Source of the DNA: a virus | Taxonomy: Duplodnaviria > Caudoviricetes | Direction: 5' to 3' (one strand) | IMG/VR virus record: IMGVR_UViG_3300006919_000434 | Location: 1 to 24,157 of that record | Length of the DNA stretch: 24,157 nucleotides | Shown: positions 5,396 to 14,372 of the stretch, piece after piece | Numbering within the stretch: position 1 is the stretch's first letter | Layout: each line of letters starts with the position of its first letter | Notes under the pieces: generated by a model | Database searches by the model: none | What the model was told of the DNA's origin: nothing | Seen by the model: only the letters and a program-made list of their open reading frames with translations | Position numbers and translations under genes: made by a program

Positions 5396-7636
5396 ATGGC
5401 TACATACGAAAACGGATACGAAGAAAAGGAAGAGTCGGCTGAATACACCGAAGACGATCTGTCCTACAAGGATAATTACGACGATCACAAGAACGTAATT
5501 GATCTGCTTAGCTCTTGCCAACAGGCTGACCATGATAACCGAGAGATGGCCCGAGAGGCCCACTTATTTGCGGATAAGCGTGACGGTCAGTGGGAACCAT
5601 ACTGGTGGAACTCAAACCAGAACAAGCCTCGCTACACGTTTGATCAAGTCAACCCTATTATTTCTCAGGTCTCATCTGAGATTGAGCAGGCTGACTTTGA
5701 CATCCGTGTCAGCCCAGCCGGCGGCAATGCCACTAAGGACGTTGCTGCTACCTACGACGGCATAATCCGAAACATTGAGAACATCTCTAACGCTAAGCAG
5801 ATATACGCTCAGTCTTGCCGTGGCATGATCACTAGCGGATTTGACGCATGGCGTGTCTGCCAGAAGTACGCGGATGACAATAGCTTTGACCAAGACATCG
5901 TGATTGAGAAGATTGCGAATCCATTGGACCGCGTCTGGTTTGATCCAGCAGCGGAAAAGCAAGACAAGTCAGATGCACGTTACGCGTTCGTGTTGCATCC
6001 TATGGCGGTCAACGAGTACAAGAGCCGCTGGCCAGAGGGCTCCGAAGAGTCTGTGACTGATGACCGTGAAGGCGACGCATACTACGACAAGGCAGAGGTC
6101 ATTGTTGTTGGCGAGTTTCTCTACGTTGAATCAGAAGACCGTGAGCTGGTCATGATGTCTAATGGACAGACTCACGAGGTCAATGAGGACTACGATAAGA
6201 TCAAAGACGATCTAGAAGCTATCGGCGTCACCGAGGTCCGTCGTCGCAAGCGCAAGATGCACAAGGTCTGCTCTCGCTACTTTGACGGCAAGGACTGGCT
6301 CGAAGATGACAAGGACACGGTATTCAACCGAATCCCTGTCGTTCCTGTTTACGGCAACTTCAAGGTATTCGAGAATAAGACTATCTACTGGGGTGTGGTA
6401 GAGAAGCTACTGGACCCGCAGCGCGTTCTGAACTACGCACTGAGCCGTGAGATCGAAGAGGGCGCACTAGCACCAAGAGCCAAATACTGGATGACTCCTG
6501 CACAAGCGGCAGGGCATGAGGACCAGCTTGCAACGCTAAACACCAACAGCGATCCGGTGCAGTTCTTTAACCCTGATCCTGAGTTCCCAGCTGTGCCCCA
6601 GCAGCAAGGCGGCGCTCAGGTTAACGGCGGTCTAAGGACTATTGCTCAGGCAATGCAGGGCATGATGAACGCAACGTCTGGTATGTTTGCGGCGAACATG
6701 GGCGACAACCCCAACGCGCAATCAGGCGTTGCTATTCGTCAGCTTCAAAACAAAGGCGACAATGCCACCTACCAGTACACCAGAGCGCTTGAGATAGCTA
6801 TCACGGCAACCGGCAATCTGATCAAGGATGCTATCCCTAAGGTCTACGACACAGAGCGCACAGTGCGCGTCCTGAGAGAAGATGAAAGCTACGACATGGC
6901 AGACATCAACCAGAAGGTCATAGACAACGCCACCGGCGAGATTGTGGTGGTCAATGATCTATCTGTGGGCACATACGATGTGATCTGTCGTGCAGGACCT
7001 AGCTTCCGCAACCGCCAGCAAGAAACATTAGAGGCAATCACTAATCTTGCCAAGGTGGACCCGTCTCTCATGCAGATCGCCGGAGACCTGTTGTTGCAGA
7101 ATGTGAACACTCCGGCAGCTACGCAGATGGCTGAGCGCAAGCGAGCGCAGATGCTACAGCAAGGCTTGATCCCGCAGTCACAAATGACTGAAGAAGAGCT
7201 CATGCAGCTACAGCAGGCTCAAATGGCAGCACAGGGCCAGCAGCAGCCTGACGCAGCAATGGTCCTAGCACAAGCTGAGCAGATGAAAGCTCAGGCAGAA
7301 ATGATACGGGCTCAGATAGAGCAAGCTAAGCTTCAGAATGAGCAGATGAAATTGCAGATAGAAGCTCAGAAGCTACAGACGCAGACTGTCGGCGATCAAG
7401 CAGACAACCAGATCGACGCATTCAACGCGCAGACCAAGCGCATAGAGGCCGAGATCAAGGCGCAGCAAGCCGGTGCAACGATTGATAACACAGCGGCCAA
7501 GACAATGGGCGAAGAGTTAGACAATCAAAAGAAGATGTCTGACTTAATGGATGAGCAGATGCGTAAAGCGCAAATGACTCAGCTGTCTGATTTTGATCTA
7601 GCGAGGATTGCGTCCGGTGCCACTTCCATTAGCTAA
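5396..7636 (+). CDS. portal protein, P22 gp1-like
   Basis: 746 aa directly after TerL. Motifs VWFDP, IPVVPVYG, GVVEKLLDPQRVLN, SGVAI, GTYDV...GPSF, and a Gln-rich C-terminal coiled-coil barrel. Confidence 0.93.
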   Translation: MATYENGYEEKEESAEYTEDDLSYKDNYDDHKNVIDLLSSCQQADHDNREMAREAHLFADKRDGQWEPYWWNSNQNKPRYTFDQVNPIISQVSSEIEQADFDIRVSPAGGNATKDVAATYDGIIRNIENISNAKQIYAQSCRGMITSGFDAWRVCQKYADDNSFDQDIVIEKIANPLDRVWFDPAAEKQDKSDARYAFVLHPMAVNEYKSRWPEGSEESVTDDREGDAYYDKAEVIVVGEFLYVESEDRELVMMSNGQTHEVNEDYDKIKDDLEAIGVTEVRRRKRKMHKVCSRYFDGKDWLEDDKDTVFNRIPVVPVYGNFKVFENKTIYWGVVEKLLDPQRVLNYALSREIEEGALAPRAKYWMTPAQAAGHEDQLATLNTNSDPVQFFNPDPEFPAVPQQQGGAQVNGGLRTIAQAMQGMMNATSGMFAANMGDNPNAQSGVAIRQLQNKGDNATYQYTRALEIAITATGNLIKDAIPKVYDTERTVRVLREDESYDMADINQKVIDNATGEIVVVNDLSVGTYDVICRAGPSFRNRQQETLEAITNLAKVDPSLMQIAGDLLLQNVNTPAATQMAERKRAQMLQQGLIPQSQMTEEELMQLQQAQMAAQGQQQPDAAMVLAQAEQMKAQAEMIRAQIEQAKLQNEQMKLQIEAQKLQTQTVGDQADNQIDAFNAQTKRIEAEIKAQQAGATIDNTAAKTMGEELDNQKKMSDLMDEQMRKAQMTQLSDFDLARIASGATSIS

Positions 7637-10600
7637 AGAGCAACAATTAGACCAGCTCCTTGCCATCAGGGAGCTGGAGAATAGGGGTCGAGGCGACGCA
7701 GCCAGAGCGATTCAGGAAAGCGGAAAGATACCTGATGACCTTGAGTACGGCGAGTTCGTAAAGGCGGCTAGGGCTGCCTATGGTCCAGCAGCGTTCTATG
7801 CGGCAGGCGGCAGGGATATTCTGCCTTACGTCTACGATTACCTCAAAGAAACGTCAATTGAGGATATAGGCGAAGATGTCTATAACTTCGGCGCAGGCGT
7901 TGCTCAAGACATCAAAGAGAACCCGCTTAGAACAGCGCTGGACTTCGTACCTTACATCGGCGCTATTGCCGGAGGCGGTGAGTCTTTTATCCTTGCCGAG
8001 CAAACACGCAAAGCCGCTGAGCGAGCTAAGGCAGCCGGTGACACAAAAGAATACGAGAAGCTTAGAGCTCTAGCCGCATCAATGATGACCGGCGCTTTGA
8101 TTCCTGCATTCGGCAAGAGGGCCCCAGACAAGCTTGACATAATCCAGAAAAGTGATCGTTACAAGGATGTGCCAGCAGAGCAGATGACCCGCGAGATGCA
8201 GGCAGAAGCTGCAATGGATACGGTCAACCAAGCGCTGGTAGCAGACATAGATGAGTTTGTTCCTTTGGCTGGTGCGCCGAAATTTGAAGGCCCATTGGCA
8301 ATGGGTGGAGTCAATCTTCTAAATAATCGGTTCGCTATATTTTCAGCGGAAAGAGGTGATTTAACTCCAGAAGAAAACACAGAACGAACTAGGAAAATGG
8401 CTAGAGAGCTGTTGCTTGAGTTCGGTCCTGATAAAGTCTCAATGGTTAAAGGCGTTTACGGAAGTCCTGAGCGCTCTTTCATTGTCCAAGACATAGACCC
8501 AATAAAAGCCAGAAACTACGGCGACAGATACGATCAGGACTCTGTATTCACTGATCGTGGCCTGATTTATAGCAAGGGCAATACAGAAGGCTTGTACGGT
8601 CAAGGCGTTCCCATAAAGCCTCAGATAGACTCAATGGGCAGACCTCAATACAAGGCCATCATTGACCCAGACTCAACTAACTTTTTTACGGATATAACCA
8701 CAGCCAGAGGCGAGCCTATCCGGTTCAGGTTTGACTTAGAAGAAAATGAGATGTTCTCACTGCCTTCTGGTGACCTGACGCCATCTTCAACAACTGGTGT
8801 GCAGTTTAGCAGGCAGCCTAACATTACGACGGCAGACCCAAACTACTACGGGACCGGCGCAAGAGGCGAAGAATCAAATAGGATAAAGTACGAGGGTGCA
8901 CCGCTACGCACCTATTTCTACCGCCCAACCGGCGATCCGGCTGCGGTAAGGCCAGAAGCTATTGTCCCCAGCGATAACAGGTACGTTACTCAGCTGCGTG
9001 AACTCTATGACGTTCAGAGAGACCCAGAGGGCCTAAGATCGTTTTCCAAGGGCCCAACAGACCTAGAGCAGATGATTCAGTCTAGGGGCTACAGAGGGCT
9101 GATGTCTGACGAAATGGCAAACCCTAGTATGGGCAGAGAAGGCAGTGCGCTATCGTTCTATCGTGAGCCTGTCACAAGCCTTGATACTGCTACTGCGCTT
9201 GGAGGACTACCACCAACCCCGCCACCTCAATACATTCAAAAAAAGCCAGCAATTCAAGCTCTCGGCGGCGATCTTAATATAGATCCAAGGACGTTTAACG
9301 CGGGCGCTGGTAGCAATTCAGGCGTGGGCAGAACAAGAGACATGGACCGGATAAGAAATCTGCAAGTTCAGTATGAGGACCGCCGGCCGTCTCAAGACAA
9401 CATTATCAGACTGCAAGACTTTGAGGGCTATCCTTTCGTGCTCTCAATGTCAGACAGGAGCATGGCTGGCAACAGGATAGCCAACATTAACGGCATCCCT
9501 ATCGGCCATACCACAAGGGGCGGCATGGGCCATATGGGTGACCCGCTAAACGCTGATACTTTGTGGCGAGCTACAGAAGCCGGAGTGACCGGATCTAAGT
9601 CGTCAATACTTGATATGTCTAGGGCTTTGACAGGGCAGGGTGGTCCTAACCCGTTATTCCTACCTGTAAACATGAGCCCAACTGGCGGCGACTTCTCATC
9701 TCAGGTGGCAACGCCGATGCTCAAGTACAACAGAGCCAAACTAAGCGACGTTGACTTGGATGACATGGACGCAGATATTGCTGAAATAATTCCTAGCTGG
9801 AAAGGAATTAGAAACGATGAGTCATTGACTAATTTATACTCAGCAACCGGCGATCAGCGAAAAGCGGTACTAGACTTGCTAGATAAGAAGTACGCTCTTC
9901 GTGGCGGGTTAACCTTGGCTGAAGCCAGAACAGCTGCAACAGATACGCGCTTGCTTCAAGCTCCTGACGGGGCTGTTATCTCGGCTGGTCGACTAGATCC
10001 TGAGCGCGGTTATAGCTTGAGCCCTGAGTATGATGTCTACCCTGCCGGCGTTTACGGCAGCCCATTAGGCAACTTTGATCAGCAGTATCAAATGTTTGAA
10101 TTCTTGCCTGATATTGTTCAAGAGGGTGGATTCGATCCAATGCTGCCGCCACGCAATCAGCTCAGAAAGATCGAGACAGGAGCTATGGGCGGACGCATAA
10201 CTGAAGACATACTTCGAGGCATGGAGGATCGTAGAACGGCTCCTGTGTCTTCTGAGACGTTCTCAGGACCTACTAGACCTAAGTCGGCGCTAAATGATCT
10301 TCTTGATCCCAATAGAATCCCAGAAAAAACACAGACTGCTTATAAGTTATTCCGAACTGATGCTGAGGGTAATTTGTATCCATTGTTCGTTAACGCGAAC
10401 CAGAAGATACCAATGAATGAGTGGCTGCCGGCAGAAGCTGGAGAAATGACTGGAAATAAAGTGAAATCCAAAATAGGTCCTCTGGCATTTAGGGCTGGTT
10501 GGCACTCTGGTGATTTACCTATAGCTACTCATATTGGAGAAAAATACGATCCCGCTACAATGCAAAAAGACAAGACAATGAAAGCGCCGAACGTAAGGCC

Positions 10601-10907
10601 AGACAATCAGGTATGGGCTGAGGTTGAAATGCCCGCTGATTACGATTGGCAAACCGAAGCAATGAATAGAGCCGAAAGGACAAAGGCTGGGAAAATAATA
10701 CCGCGCACAGCTCACATTACTGACCAAGTTCCCTATGGCGGTCATTACAGGTACAAAACCAACCCTAATATGACTGGAGAATGGTTAATAGGTGGGCAAA
10801 TGAAGGTAAACCGCATCCTAAGTGATGATGAGGTCAAAAGGATAAATGATGCCGCTGGTGTAGCAGATCTGCCGAGATTGTCAGCGTTGAGAAATTTAGA
10901 GGATTAA
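7617..10907 (+). CDS. large multidomain (polyvalent) protein: N-terminal helical region, SAM-lyase-like domain, ART-like domain, two uncharacterised domains
   Basis: Open frame of 1099 codons from TTG 7608; GAGGA at 7603-7607 favours GTG 7617. Domains are recognised from motifs (see findings) and separated by Pro-rich linkers. Confidence 0.85.
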   Translation: MPLPLAKEQQLDQLLAIRELENRGRGDAARAIQESGKIPDDLEYGEFVKAARAAYGPAAFYAAGGRDILPYVYDYLKETSIEDIGEDVYNFGAGVAQDIKENPLRTALDFVPYIGAIAGGGESFILAEQTRKAAERAKAAGDTKEYEKLRALAASMMTGALIPAFGKRAPDKLDIIQKSDRYKDVPAEQMTREMQAEAAMDTVNQALVADIDEFVPLAGAPKFEGPLAMGGVNLLNNRFAIFSAERGDLTPEENTERTRKMARELLLEFGPDKVSMVKGVYGSPERSFIVQDIDPIKARNYGDRYDQDSVFTDRGLIYSKGNTEGLYGQGVPIKPQIDSMGRPQYKAIIDPDSTNFFTDITTARGEPIRFRFDLEENEMFSLPSGDLTPSSTTGVQFSRQPNITTADPNYYGTGARGEESNRIKYEGAPLRTYFYRPTGDPAAVRPEAIVPSDNRYVTQLRELYDVQRDPEGLRSFSKGPTDLEQMIQSRGYRGLMSDEMANPSMGREGSALSFYREPVTSLDTATALGGLPPTPPPQYIQKKPAIQALGGDLNIDPRTFNAGAGSNSGVGRTRDMDRIRNLQVQYEDRRPSQDNIIRLQDFEGYPFVLSMSDRSMAGNRIANINGIPIGHTTRGGMGHMGDPLNADTLWRATEAGVTGSKSSILDMSRALTGQGGPNPLFLPVNMSPTGGDFSSQVATPMLKYNRAKLSDVDLDDMDADIAEIIPSWKGIRNDESLTNLYSATGDQRKAVLDLLDKKYALRGGLTLAEARTAATDTRLLQAPDGAVISAGRLDPERGYSLSPEYDVYPAGVYGSPLGNFDQQYQMFEFLPDIVQEGGFDPMLPPRNQLRKIETGAMGGRITEDILRGMEDRRTAPVSSETFSGPTRPKSALNDLLDPNRIPEKTQTAYKLFRTDAEGNLYPLFVNANQKIPMNEWLPAEAGEMTGNKVKSKIGPLAFRAGWHSGDLPIATHIGEKYDPATMQKDKTMKAPNVRPDNQVWAEVEMPADYDWQTEAMNRAERTKAGKIIPRTAHITDQVPYGGHYRYKTNPNMTGEWLIGGQMKVNRILSDDEVKRINDAAGVADLPRLSALRNLED

Positions 10908-11077
10908 TCGGCACCAGCTAAAAGCCGGACCTTTTCTTCTATTTCTTCTTGTATCTCTTCGCACTCTTCAAACTCACCATAAGCGTGAGCAAGGATTGCT
11001 TGATTTACAAGGCTAACAATATCGTCGGCTATCTGATCAGGATCATCGGTTTCAAATAAGTCTATGATCTTATTCAT
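10904..11077 (-). CDS. 57-aa acidic protein (not in the ORF track)
   Basis: MNKIIDLFETDDPDQIADDIVSLVNQAILAHAYGEFEECEEIQEEIEEKVRLLAGAD*. AGGTG RBS-like sequence and a promoter lie upstream. Its stop overlaps the stop of the large gene (TTAA, 10904-10907). Confidence 0.75.
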   Translation of the reverse strand: MNKIIDLFETDDPDQIADDIVSLVNQAILAHAYGEFEECEEIQEEIEEKVRLLAGAD

Positions 11078-11198: not shown

Positions 11199-12029
11199 AT
11201 GAGCGAGCTGCAACCAGAAGACAACTACGCGTACGAATCCGAGGACGACGTAACCACGGAGACAGAGGTAGTAGAAACTGAAGATTCTGCGGAGGCGCAG
11301 GATTCCGATTCAGCACCGGAGACTGAGGATACTCAGGATAAACAGGTCAAGTTCGACGAGCAACAGCAACGCATATTTGATGAGGCTGTAGGTAAGAAGG
11401 TATTCAAGCTCAGAGAGAAAGAGCGAGAAGCTGAAGCCTATAAAAAACAGCTTGAAGAATTGCAGGCGAAGCTCGGCGAGAAGCAGGCCCCAAAAGTTCC
11501 TGACTTGCCAGATCCTTTTGCGGTATCAGAATATGAATATCGCCAAAGTCTGCAAATGAGGGAGAAGGCCCTGCAAGATGCTGCTAGGTATGAATTTGAG
11601 CAGCAAGCAATTCGGCAGCAGCAAGAACAAATGCGGCAGCAGGAATTGTTAAAGCAGCAGGAAGAGCTAACAGAAAAGGTAAGCTCTTACTCTAAGCGGG
11701 CAACTAAGTTAGGTATCTCTTCGGAGGAACTACAAGAAGCAGGAAACACGGTGGCGCAGTTCGGCATAGACGAGTCACTGGTTAATGTGATTTTAGAAGA
11801 CGATTACGGTCCTCTGATCACAAAGTACCTGTCTAAGAACCCGCTTGAACTTGATACGTTGCGACAACTACCGCCAGCTCACGCAGCGGTAAGAGTAGCT
11901 ACATTAATCAAGGAGAAAGCTGCATCGCTTAAACCCAAGGTAAATAACGCTCCTGATCCTTTGGAGCAGCCACACGGCGCTGGTACGGCTCCCAAACCTA
12001 GAGGGCCAAAAGGTGCCACATTTGAATAG
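11199..12029 (+). CDS. capsid scaffolding protein
   Basis: Acidic N-terminus, coiled-coil middle, Pro-rich basic C-tail. Immediately upstream of the coat gene. AAGGGG RBS. Confidence 0.85.
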   Translation: MSELQPEDNYAYESEDDVTTETEVVETEDSAEAQDSDSAPETEDTQDKQVKFDEQQQRIFDEAVGKKVFKLREKEREAEAYKKQLEELQAKLGEKQAPKVPDLPDPFAVSEYEYRQSLQMREKALQDAARYEFEQQAIRQQQEQMRQQELLKQQEELTEKVSSYSKRATKLGISSEELQEAGNTVAQFGIDESLVNVILEDDYGPLITKYLSKNPLELDTLRQLPPAHAAVRVATLIKEKAASLKPKVNNAPDPLEQPHGAGTAPKPRGPKGATFE

Positions 12030-12043
12030 GAAGGTGATCCAGA

Positions 12044-13306
12044 ATGGCTAACAATCTTAATAGTAACGTAACTCGGAAAGTCGCTCGCGTCTTTCTTGAT
12101 GCTTTTGAGGCATCACGAGTTCTGACTAAGACTGTAAACACACAGCTCTTGTCAGGCAAATTCAACCCTGCATCGGGTTCAACTGTAGACTTCAAGCGTC
12201 CACACGACTACAACAGCATCCGTACTTCTGGCGGTGACATTAGCTCAAGCACTAAGAGCGACATCATTGCAGGTAAGGCGACTGGTACAGTTCAGGACTA
12301 CTTCACTGCCGCTACTGAGTGGGGCAATGTTGAGGAAGCGCTTGAGCTAGACCAACTCGATCAGATCCTTGAGCCAATGGCACGTCGCATTGTGACTGAC
12401 ATGGAGCTCGATCTTGGCGCATACATCCGCAAGAACGCCTCACTCAAGTATGGTACTCACGGCACTGCCGTTGATGCTTGGGGCGACGTTGCAGGTGCTG
12501 GTGCTTTGATGGATTCAGTCGGTGTTCCAATGTCTGACGAGAAGTACTACATCATGAACCCATTCACCACTACTGCGCTGTCTTCAGCTCAGAACGGTCT
12601 GAATGCGGCTGATGGCCTTGTTCGTACAGCGTGGGAAAAAGCGCAAATCTCTAGCAACTTCGGCGGCATGATGGCTCTTACATCTAACGCTCTGTCTAGC
12701 TACACTTCAGGTTCTACTACTGACCGTGCAGGCGCTTTGGCTTCTACTCCTGACGCAACTTACGTTACAGCTAAGGACACTATGACGCAGGTTCTGTCTC
12801 TGAACAACTTGGGTACTGGTACTATCAAAGCTGGCGACATGGTTACTATCGCAGGCGTTTACCGTCTGAACGTAGCAACTCGTGAGCCTATCCTTGATGC
12901 TGCTGGCAACCAAGTGCTTTGGACAGGTACTGTACTCGAAGATGTGACTATCGCTGGCAACGCTGCGACTATCACTGTCTCAGGTGCTGCTATCTACGAA
13001 GCAAATGGTCAGTACAACAACGTAAGCGCGGCTCCTACTAGCGGTGACGTTGTAACTATCCTTGGTGCTGCTTCAACTCTGTACCAGCCTAACCTCTTCT
13101 ACACGAAGCAGGCGTTCGGCATCGGTACTGTTAAGCTGCCTAAGCTCTACAGCACTGATACTATCGCTACTACTAGCGATGGATTCAGCATCCGCGTATC
13201 TAAGTACGCAGACGGTGACGCTAACACGCAGAAGATTCGTTTTGACCTTCTGCCCGCATACGCAACCTTTAACCCGCTCTTCGCAGGTCAAGGCTTCGGC
13301 GTATAA
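12044..13306 (+). CDS. major capsid protein, P22 gp5 family
   Basis: 420 aa starting MANNL, with GSTVDFKRP and C-terminal IRFDLL. Follows the scaffold gene, precedes a terminator, and has a strong RBS. Confidence 0.92.
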   Translation: MANNLNSNVTRKVARVFLDAFEASRVLTKTVNTQLLSGKFNPASGSTVDFKRPHDYNSIRTSGGDISSSTKSDIIAGKATGTVQDYFTAATEWGNVEEALELDQLDQILEPMARRIVTDMELDLGAYIRKNASLKYGTHGTAVDAWGDVAGAGALMDSVGVPMSDEKYYIMNPFTTTALSSAQNGLNAADGLVRTAWEKAQISSNFGGMMALTSNALSSYTSGSTTDRAGALASTPDATYVTAKDTMTQVLSLNNLGTGTIKAGDMVTIAGVYRLNVATREPILDAAGNQVLWTGTVLEDVTIAGNAATITVSGAAIYEANGQYNNVSAAPTSGDVVTILGAASTLYQPNLFYTKQAFGIGTVKLPKLYSTDTIATTSDGFSIRVSKYADGDANTQKIRFDLLPAYATFNPLFAGQGFGV

Positions 13307-13320
13307 CGCTAGAATGGAGG

Positions 13321-13341
13321 AGGGGGCTTCGGCCCCCTTTT
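13321..13341 (+). terminator. rho-independent terminator after the coat gene
   Basis: AGGGGGC-TTCG-GCCCCCT followed by TTT. Confidence 0.85.
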
Positions 13342-13348
13342 CGCTTAT

Positions 13349-13609
13349 ATGGCAAAACCACAGAAAGGCAAGGCCAAGGTTAAGGTCACAGCGTCAGGCA
13401 AGAAGGTCTCCTACGGGCAGGCTGGGAAAGCTAGTGACGGTGGACCACGAGTACGCGCTGGAACTAAGAAGGGCGACTCATACTGTGCTAGATCATTAGG
13501 GATCAAGAAACGATTGCCTAAAGACAAGCAGAACGATCCTAATACGCCAAACAACCTAAGTCGTAAGCGCTGGAAGTGTAAAGGCGCTAAATCAGCAAGG
13601 TACGAATAA
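13349..13609 (+). CDS. small basic protein (DUF6321-like)
   Basis: SYCARS...DPNTPNNLSRKRWKC resembles the recalled DUF6321 pattern. K/R-rich. Ends KSARYE. Confidence 0.75.
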   Translation: MAKPQKGKAKVKVTASGKKVSYGQAGKASDGGPRVRAGTKKGDSYCARSLGIKKRLPKDKQNDPNTPNNLSRKRWKCKGAKSARYE

Positions 13610-13767
13610 TGGCTGGACTGTACGAAAACATTCACAAAAAGCGTAAGCGCATCAAGCGGCAAAAGGCTGAAGGCAAGACTCCTGAAAGAATGAGGAAGGC
13701 TGGCTCAAAAGGCGCGCCTACTGCTAAAGCGTTTAGGCAATCAGCAAAAACAGCAACATTCGAGTGA
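13609..13767 (+). CDS. 52-aa basic protein (not in the ORF track)
   Basis: MAGLYENIHKKRKRIKRQKAEGKTPERMRKAGSKGAPTAKAFRQSAKTATFE*. TAATG coupling to the upstream gene. Confidence 0.85.
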   Translation: MAGLYENIHKKRKRIKRQKAEGKTPERMRKAGSKGAPTAKAFRQSAKTATFE

Positions 13768-13776
13768 GGTAATACC

Positions 13777-13893
13777 ATGCCAATGGTTAAAGGTAAGAAA
13801 TATCCCTACACGAAAGAAGGCAGAGCAGCTGCTGCTAAGGCTGCAAAGAAGCCTAAGAAGAAAGCAAAAGCTAAAGGAGCTATGTACGAGTAA
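13777..13893 (+). CDS. 38-aa Lys/Ala-rich protein (not in the ORF track)
   Basis: MPMVKGKKYPYTKEGRAAAAKAAKKPKKKAKAKGAMYE*. GAGGT RBS at 13766-13770. TAATG coupling to the next gene. Confidence 0.85.
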   Translation: MPMVKGKKYPYTKEGRAAAAKAAKKPKKKAKAKGAMYE

Positions 13894-14372
13894 TGGCTAC
13901 TGTCGCTCAGGTTGCAAAAGCATCGCTACAACGGATTCTGGTACAAGCGTCTGAAGCTCCTCTTGAGCCTGATGAGTACCAAGACTATATATTCGCTCTA
14001 AATAATTACATGGCTCAGCTAGATGCTCAAGGCATTAGCTTGGGTTATACGGAAGTGTCAGATTTAGGTGATACTGTAACAATTCCGACAGGTGCATTGC
14101 GCGGAGTTATTGCAAATATGGCAATAGAAGTCGCGCCAGATTACGGAGGCGTAGTCTCTGACGGACTGGTCCTAGCGGCCCGTCAAGGTATGCAGACTAT
14201 GCGAACCATTGGGCAGCGCATTAGAGCAAGCGCACTACCATCTACACTGCCTATCGGCTCTGGTAACGAAGATGAGTCTTGGGGCCTTAACGGACATTTC
14301 TACCCAGATGCTGAGGCTGAGATACTCGCCGAGACTACTGGCGCTATCGGTCTGGAGAACAATACGCAATGA
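13893..14372 (+). CDS. head-to-tail adaptor, P22 gp4-like
   Basis: 159 aa. NMAIEVAPDYG and LPIGSGN match recalled gp4-family motifs. Syntenic position. Confidence 0.85.
   Translation: MATVAQVAKASLQRILVQASEAPLEPDEYQDYIFALNNYMAQLDAQGISLGYTEVSDLGDTVTIPTGALRGVIANMAIEVAPDYGGVVSDGLVLAARQGMQTMRTIGQRIRASALPSTLPIGSGNEDESWGLNGHFYPDAEAEILAETTGAIGLENNTQ

Follow-up and report, generated by a model that had tools for sequence, protein, structure and literature searches.

A C-terminal ending common to the scaffold and to optional polycationic mini-proteins of an Sf6-related phage is a candidate head-loading signal

Introduction

How proteins are selected for the interior of podovirus heads is poorly understood. 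The locus described here raises this question in a compact form: why do three very small basic proteins encoded after a phage coat gene finish in nearly the same residues as the scaffold encoded before it? The window, by which we mean the whole stretch of 24,157 nucleotides that was analysed, had received a first-pass annotation proposing that these proteins borrowed the coat-binding tail of the scaffold in order to be loaded into procapsids. If the ending is indeed an address label, it would predict the coat-docking residues, it would offer a first testable role for very common unannotated marine phage mini-genes, and it would provide a much shorter loading tag than the scaffold fragments of P22 particle engineering.

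Results

Four genes of the head module have the same end

The window carries an Sf6-type P22-like head module, with P22-family portal, coat, gp4 and gp10 genes in P22 order; the complete arrangement is terminase, portal (PF16510), an insert coding for 1099 aa, scaffold, coat, mini-proteins A, B and C, gp4 (PF11650) and gp10 (PF11134). No head protease gene was found within the window. The features around the coat gene are as follows.

11199-12029, plus strand: scaffold, ending KGATFE before a TAG stop (tail and stop, 12009-12029)
12044-13306, plus strand: Sf6-type major coat protein, 420 aa (PF11651), putative partner of the tail
13317-13342, plus strand: stable hairpin 3' of the coat gene (-21.4 kcal/mol, z -3.1)
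13349-13609, plus strand: mini-protein A, ending KSARYE before TAA
13609-13767, plus strand: mini-protein B, ending KTATFE before TGA
13777-13893, plus strand: mini-protein C, ending KGAMYE before TAA, its stop overlapping the gp4 start
13893-14372, plus strand: gp4-like head-tail adaptor of P22 type (PF11650, phrog_637), right-hand boundary of the cassette

The four ends were located exactly where the first-pass annotation had placed them, and their likeness is real. When all ATG or GTG ORFs of at least 30 aa on both strands were considered, exactly 4 of 132 ended in [FY]E, namely the scaffold, A, B and C, which upholds the earlier statement that the other predicted genes lack this end. For the other 24 plausible genes, the probability of at least three such ends is 1.5e-4 with the residue frequencies of the window and 0.012 with generous frequencies. 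The hexapeptide first proposed, K-x-A-x-[FY]-E, fits the four genes of the window but overfits this genome, since only 23 of 47 distinct tagged 8-mers of relatives match it; the core common to tagged relatives is [A/P]-[T/K/R]-[Y/F]-E at the C-terminus.

Other features were observed between portal and scaffold. The insert (7608-10907) encodes a multi-domain protein with an S-adenosylmethionine lyase domain (PF23780, residues 244-314; phrog_30118), which ends in LSALRNLED. The motif S[AS]L[RN] occurs near the ends of many different post-portal proteins in relatives, where it is possibly a second, separate loading motif. Between this insert and the scaffold, a 57-aa acidic ORF without PHROG match lies on the minus strand (10904-11077), opposite to the late operon, with a near-consensus promoter on the same strand (11135-11106).

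The mini-proteins are optional modules of a variable cassette

The three mini-proteins are strongly basic: A has 86 aa, a net charge of +20 and the end SARYE, B (phrog_16028) has 52 aa, a net charge of +12 and the end TATFE, and C has 38 aa, a net charge of +11 and the end GAMYE. All of them are real genes under purifying selection, with pN/pS values of 0.11, 0.17 and 0.23 for A, B and C, respectively (55, 54 and 20 distinct tagged alleles). By sequence, A appears to be at most a distant relative of DUF6321 (PF19846), which it matched with 16.1 bits (E 0.019), below the gathering score of 28.5 bits; among the best 120 of its 1886 homologues, taken regardless of genomic context, 23 had the [YF]E end. 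The terminal G, Y and E of C were invariant across an alignment of 18 sequences, and no homologues of C were found in the cultured-phage collection. An Atlas search with B matched only unnamed clusters.

Of 555 close relatives, the best 80 (coat 88-100%) were surveyed for the cassette, and both of its boundaries were present in 69. In these 69 loci the gp4-bounded cassette consisted of zero to three modules: A, B and C together in 22, A and B in 19, A in 17, nothing in 6, B and C in 2, B and a fourth family, D, in 2, and B in 1. This varied content indicates that the modules are optional and shuffled, and the cassette is dispensable. Among distinct ends within the clade, [FY]E was present in 29/30 for A, 43/48 for B, 17/19 for C and 2/2 for D, and a 46-aa deletion form of A (L058) retains the tail. 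The untagged exceptions comprised one seemingly frameshifted contig (L152), a B gene into which another gene is inserted, LE in place of [FY]E at three B ends, and a single match to the C pattern (L131). Other neighbours within the clade were also untagged, including a 95-aa basic family (family E, 0/7), an ancestral 45-aa family (family X, 0/52) and HNH genes.

Additional rearrangements and families were observed after the coat gene. In L072, L077 and L080 an insertion that codes for a 105-aa helix-turn-helix-like protein shortens B, and the tail is lost. More distant relatives have, 3' of the coat gene, a family of 40-60 aa with the pattern KPxG...LGW (L160, 4825-4962; gp11 of phage H6/1), which is never tagged and is absent from the window and its close relatives.

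Regarding expression, the hairpin that separates the coat gene from the mini-genes is probably a partial terminator that reduces the expression of the downstream genes. The terminator scan made no call on 13317-13342; Sf6 has an annotated terminator at the equivalent position. Contigs from RNA runs of relatives, which had small word shares, included one that spans the coat gene into a tagged A, in material where DNA may be present.

The ending of the scaffold is of Sf6 type

The coat protein is 45.5% identical to the Sf6 coat and matches PDB 7sp4/5l35 (E about 1e-110), and the structure of its monomer was predicted with a pLDDT of 85. The scaffold, a head scaffolding protein of 276 aa (phrog_8865, E 4e-25), has in the tail alignment a Pro/Gly-rich C-terminal arm that ends in G-A-T-F-E. 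The end GAx[FY]E was found in 119 of the best 120 of its 298 homologues, and among the distinct scaffold tails of clade loci (coats about 49-100% identical) 92 of 102 end in [FY]E and 95 of 102 in a hydrophobic residue followed by Glu. The scaffold of Pseudoalteromonas phage H6/1 ends in KGAKFE and that of Sf6 in PGAKIE, Sf6-type scaffolds generally ending in PGA[KITM]IE. The window thus combines an Sf6-type coat with a matching scaffold end (GATFE vs PGAKIE), and the hydrophobic-Glu tail is ancestral on the scaffold, being kept from this clade to Sf6.

The function of this end had been taken in the first pass from the P22 scaffold, which is described as binding coat through a C-terminal basic helix-turn-helix (bioRxiv 10.1101/539965, available text). 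This premise holds by analogy only, because the Pro/Gly-rich arm and the final Glu make the scaffold end of the window an Sf6-type tail and not the basic helix-turn-helix of P22. Searches of the PDB found no solved structure matching the scaffold end, nor one that shows an Sf6-type end bound to its coat. By analogy with P22 and 80alpha, we infer that the scaffold tail is a coat-binding element.

The tail is restricted to one clade and occurs at two genome positions

The A and B families are common among unrelated aquatic phages, including cultured T7-like roseophages, pelagiphages and cyanophages. In cultured T7-like marine phages the B gene is flanked by the scaffold and capsid genes, and its product has an untagged end, with Lys/Arg or other residues. 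We examined the best 80 of 591 B loci, of which 79 were new and 71 could be scored, 8 being missed by the recognition pattern; B was tagged in 23/24 cases beside a coat or gp4 gene of the clade vs 0/47 elsewhere. Whole contigs provided an independent repeat of this comparison: a fifth family, H, which is absent from the window, lies between the terminase genes, with a YE end in G002 and G003 and an untagged end in G004. Among 42 H loci, picked by an N-terminal pattern that ignores the tail, the end [TK]YE was present in 16/16 beside clade terminase genes vs 0/26 elsewhere. Like those of tagged and untagged loci in general, these counts are not numbers of independent events, because of the relatedness of the loci and the recurrence of some contigs; Fisher tests, which presuppose independent loci, were given no weight. 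Additionally, D was untagged in an unrelated phage (L346). On a quick tree of 145 A cores, built on 71 columns with the tail removed, the tail label needs 14 changes, at least three of them forced by well-supported branches; this pattern is consistent with repeated gain, loss or recombination of the tail.

A counter-example foreseen in the first-pass annotation, namely homologues beside the same scaffold tail without the motif, was not encountered in families A-D. Its statement that the tail is found on otherwise unrelated proteins is supported, these families having gained it only in phages with this scaffold. Taken together, these comparisons show a clade-specific reuse of the last residues of the scaffold, at two genome positions, in marine phages related to Sf6.

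No co-variation of the module tails with the tail of the cognate scaffold was evident. The choice between F and Y is not matched to the scaffold: where the scaffold has F, Y was found in 60 cargo tails and F in 22, and where it has Y, 5 cargo tails had Y. In a sister lineage (L237/L280/L286) basic families end in T-[LV]-E and the scaffolds of some relatives end in VE, a likeness that was discounted as co-variation because it is confounded by a GGAG that doubles as ribosome-binding site. In the handful of T7-like and other phages inspected, modules and their own scaffolds ended differently, and Sf6-like enterobacterial loci had no such modules 3' of coat.

Several other endings were observed. 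At the gp14 position, following the small gene after gp10, G002 and G003 encode a 154-aa protein that ends in ELEARYE with an eight-base overlap, and a 110-aa non-basic protein ends in EAGYE (L365, 2644-2976); these could be additional tagged proteins or by-products of overlaps. In an unrelated phage group (L334, L362, L364) some genomes have the sequence KKSYPRG at the end of family H and another has it on the following basic gene; it differs from the scaffold end of that group. Furthermore, a basic family of 71-77 aa found after the coat gene in the sister lineage (L237, L286) has an N-terminal stretch that resembles the N-terminus of a 438-aa ejection-region protein (G005; 35% over 43 aa, pairwise E 3e-4) and is possibly a borrowed N-terminal signal.

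The last two residues are selected as protein

Like ends could also arise at the level of DNA, if ribosome-binding sites, stop-start overlaps and short-homology recombination shuffled the cassette and left a common sequence at its junctions. There is indeed a codon bias toward AGG and GGAG, with Arg at -3 encoded by AGG in 14/14 cases and Gly at -5 by GGA in 22/25 one-base overlaps; the Tyr and Glu codons are partly fixed by the eight-base overlap; GGAG lies directly before the next start within the T-[LV]-E ends of the L237/L286 lineage; and cassette shuffling does occur at these ends. In this regard, the upstream K-G-A/R part of the tail is partly shaped by the ribosome-binding site of the next gene.

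For the final residues the evidence points the other way. Among 76 distinct junctions, [FY]E was found in 40/40 one-base overlaps, 18/18 eight-base overlaps and 15/18 spacers, that is, across three junction types, and the same end occurs with different downstream genes, at two loci and also without any gene overlap (family H in G003). Synonymous and F/Y exchanges are common, the codons used being TAC, TAT, TTT and TTC followed by GAA or GAG, with all three stops. Control families X and E, which have the same one-base overlap, had [FY]E in 0/15, and untagged H copies share that overlap as well. Since the ending is kept in three junction geometries and tolerates synonymous changes, its last two residues, the aromatic one and Glu, are selected as protein; they usually follow Ala and Thr/Lys, the same preference as in the scaffold. 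The conservation at the protein level proposed in the first pass is therefore supported for these two residues at all junction types, but part of the hexapeptide is due to the ribosome-binding site. A role of the tail as translation-initiation region of gp4 was rejected, because module-free loci differ in the sequence before gp4.

Discussion

The pattern described above is best accounted for, in our opinion, by the loading of cargo: it is probable, judging from the sequence comparisons, that the tails of A, B and C mimic the coat-binding end of the scaffold and recruit optional polycationic cargo into the interior of the procapsid. Beyond the sequence pattern, we infer all the steps of this process. 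The mini-proteins would be expressed from the late operon, with their position 3' of the hairpin probably reducing their level. Their tail would attach to the inner surface of the coat at the site used by the scaffold and, being a shortened copy, would bind more weakly and at a minority of sites, so that the mini-proteins would be built into the procapsid as cargo. When the shell matures the scaffold would leave, the incoming DNA would hold the polycations, and these could help to neutralise the charge of the DNA or be delivered with it. Several observations count against loading, among them the F/Y choice and the unmatched module tails of other phages described above. The part of the tail that is not explained by DNA is short, approximately the aromatic residue and the terminal Glu. 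Untagged members of the A, B and H families are present in many other phages, and the tail is therefore not required for their general role. Finally, basic neighbours are untagged within the clade itself (families E and X, and H in G004).

More tentatively, and with less than even confidence, we propose a wider scenario in which aquatic phages draw on a common, mobile stock of protamine-like mini-proteins, each of which the Sf6-related clade turns into head cargo by adding the last residues of its scaffold. If true, this would be a natural, repeatedly evolved C-terminal loading code of four residues for podovirus heads, and it would reveal where an Sf6-type scaffold binds its coat and uncover DNA-condensing internal proteins as a class that has so far gone unrecognised.

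Other explanations of a tail selected as protein have to be considered. The tail could be a signal for a partner other than coat, such as the portal, the scaffold or an enzyme of phage or host, or it could shield a labile basic C-terminus from host proteases. In favour of this, H is tagged near the terminase genes, and in relatives the gp14-position protein and some larger ones also end in YE. A protein with an acidic residue at its end can escape tail-specific proteases. A generic stabilising end, however, would not be limited to one phage clade with one set of hosts while close homologues elsewhere end in Lys/Arg, and it would have no need of the aromatic residue. Against a partner other than coat stands the binding of coat by the scaffold C-terminus, as described for P22 (bioRxiv 10.1101/539965) and 80alpha (PMC5644958) in the available parts of both sources, and we regard this explanation as unlikely.

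It is also improbable, on balance, that binding of the tail to the scaffold's site makes the mini-proteins transient competitors, which would tune nucleation, the size of the shell or the release of the scaffold and then leave the head. This would be compatible with the same comparative evidence as cargo loading; CpmB competes with scaffold for one site (PMC5644958, available text), and proteins of 4-10 kDa could presumably exit as the scaffold does. Nevertheless, at least five unrelated families are tagged and freely exchanged, which is more in keeping with an address label than with a specific regulator of assembly, and the families have no common dimerisation or effector domain, all of them being polycationic. 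Least probable, and for the last two residues largely refuted by the junction data given above, is that the common ends are a mere by-product of DNA junctions.

Comparison with known systems

The loading of cargo through a scaffold-like tail has partial counterparts in several systems. In encapsulins, unrelated cargo enzymes dock on the inside of an HK97-fold shell through short terminal cargo-loading peptides, and neither scaffold nor genome is present. The likeness to the phage tail, drawn by description only, thus lies in short terminal peptides on unrelated cargo, and the difference in a shell that lacks scaffold and genome and is loaded with enzymes. The capsid targeting sequence of T4 is cleaved. 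Together with the packaging signal of P1 DarB, that of T4 IPIII is described as a portable N-terminal signal for head loading (PMC9024508, available text). As in these systems, a short terminal peptide is portable here among unrelated proteins (families A, B, C, D and H, within one clade), with head loading as a candidate function. The T4 and P1 signals are N-terminal and belong to myoviruses, whereas the tail of the window is strictly C-terminal, resembles the scaffold end and occurs without a head protease gene in the window.

With P22 the module has in common its gene order, the scaffold C-terminus as coat-binding end (here by analogy) and the principle that appended sequences ride into the shell, since P22 scaffold fragments carry fused peptides into engineered particles (PMC3899596, available text). 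The P22 element is a basic folded domain of about 40 residues; in contrast, the clade has an Sf6-type Pro/Gly-rich arm ending in G-A-x-hydrophobic-E, and its reuse is natural.

A precedent for scaffold-tail mimicry is CpmB of SaPI1, which has a copy of the C-terminus of the 80alpha scaffold (the RIIK helix-and-hook), binds the same capsid site and competes with the scaffold (PMC5644958, available text). Among the papers covered by our literature search, none described the tag or reported virion proteomics of these families, in agreement with the novelty claimed in the first pass for P22-like phages, but a natural mimic of a scaffold tail was already known in CpmB. In both cases the end of the scaffold recurs on another protein, binding to the same site being known for CpmB only. 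In contrast to the tail described here, CpmB is a satellite-encoded dimeric alternative scaffold with an interface of about 16 residues, which changes capsid size (PMC5644958). The proteins of the window, known from sequence alone, are optional and unrelated polycationic products of several families encoded in the phage's own head operon, and have only the last 2-5 residues in common with the cognate scaffold. By analogy, the tail would work like the known loading signals and yet belong to none of them, being C-terminal, very short and carried by the phage's own optional genes of at least five families.
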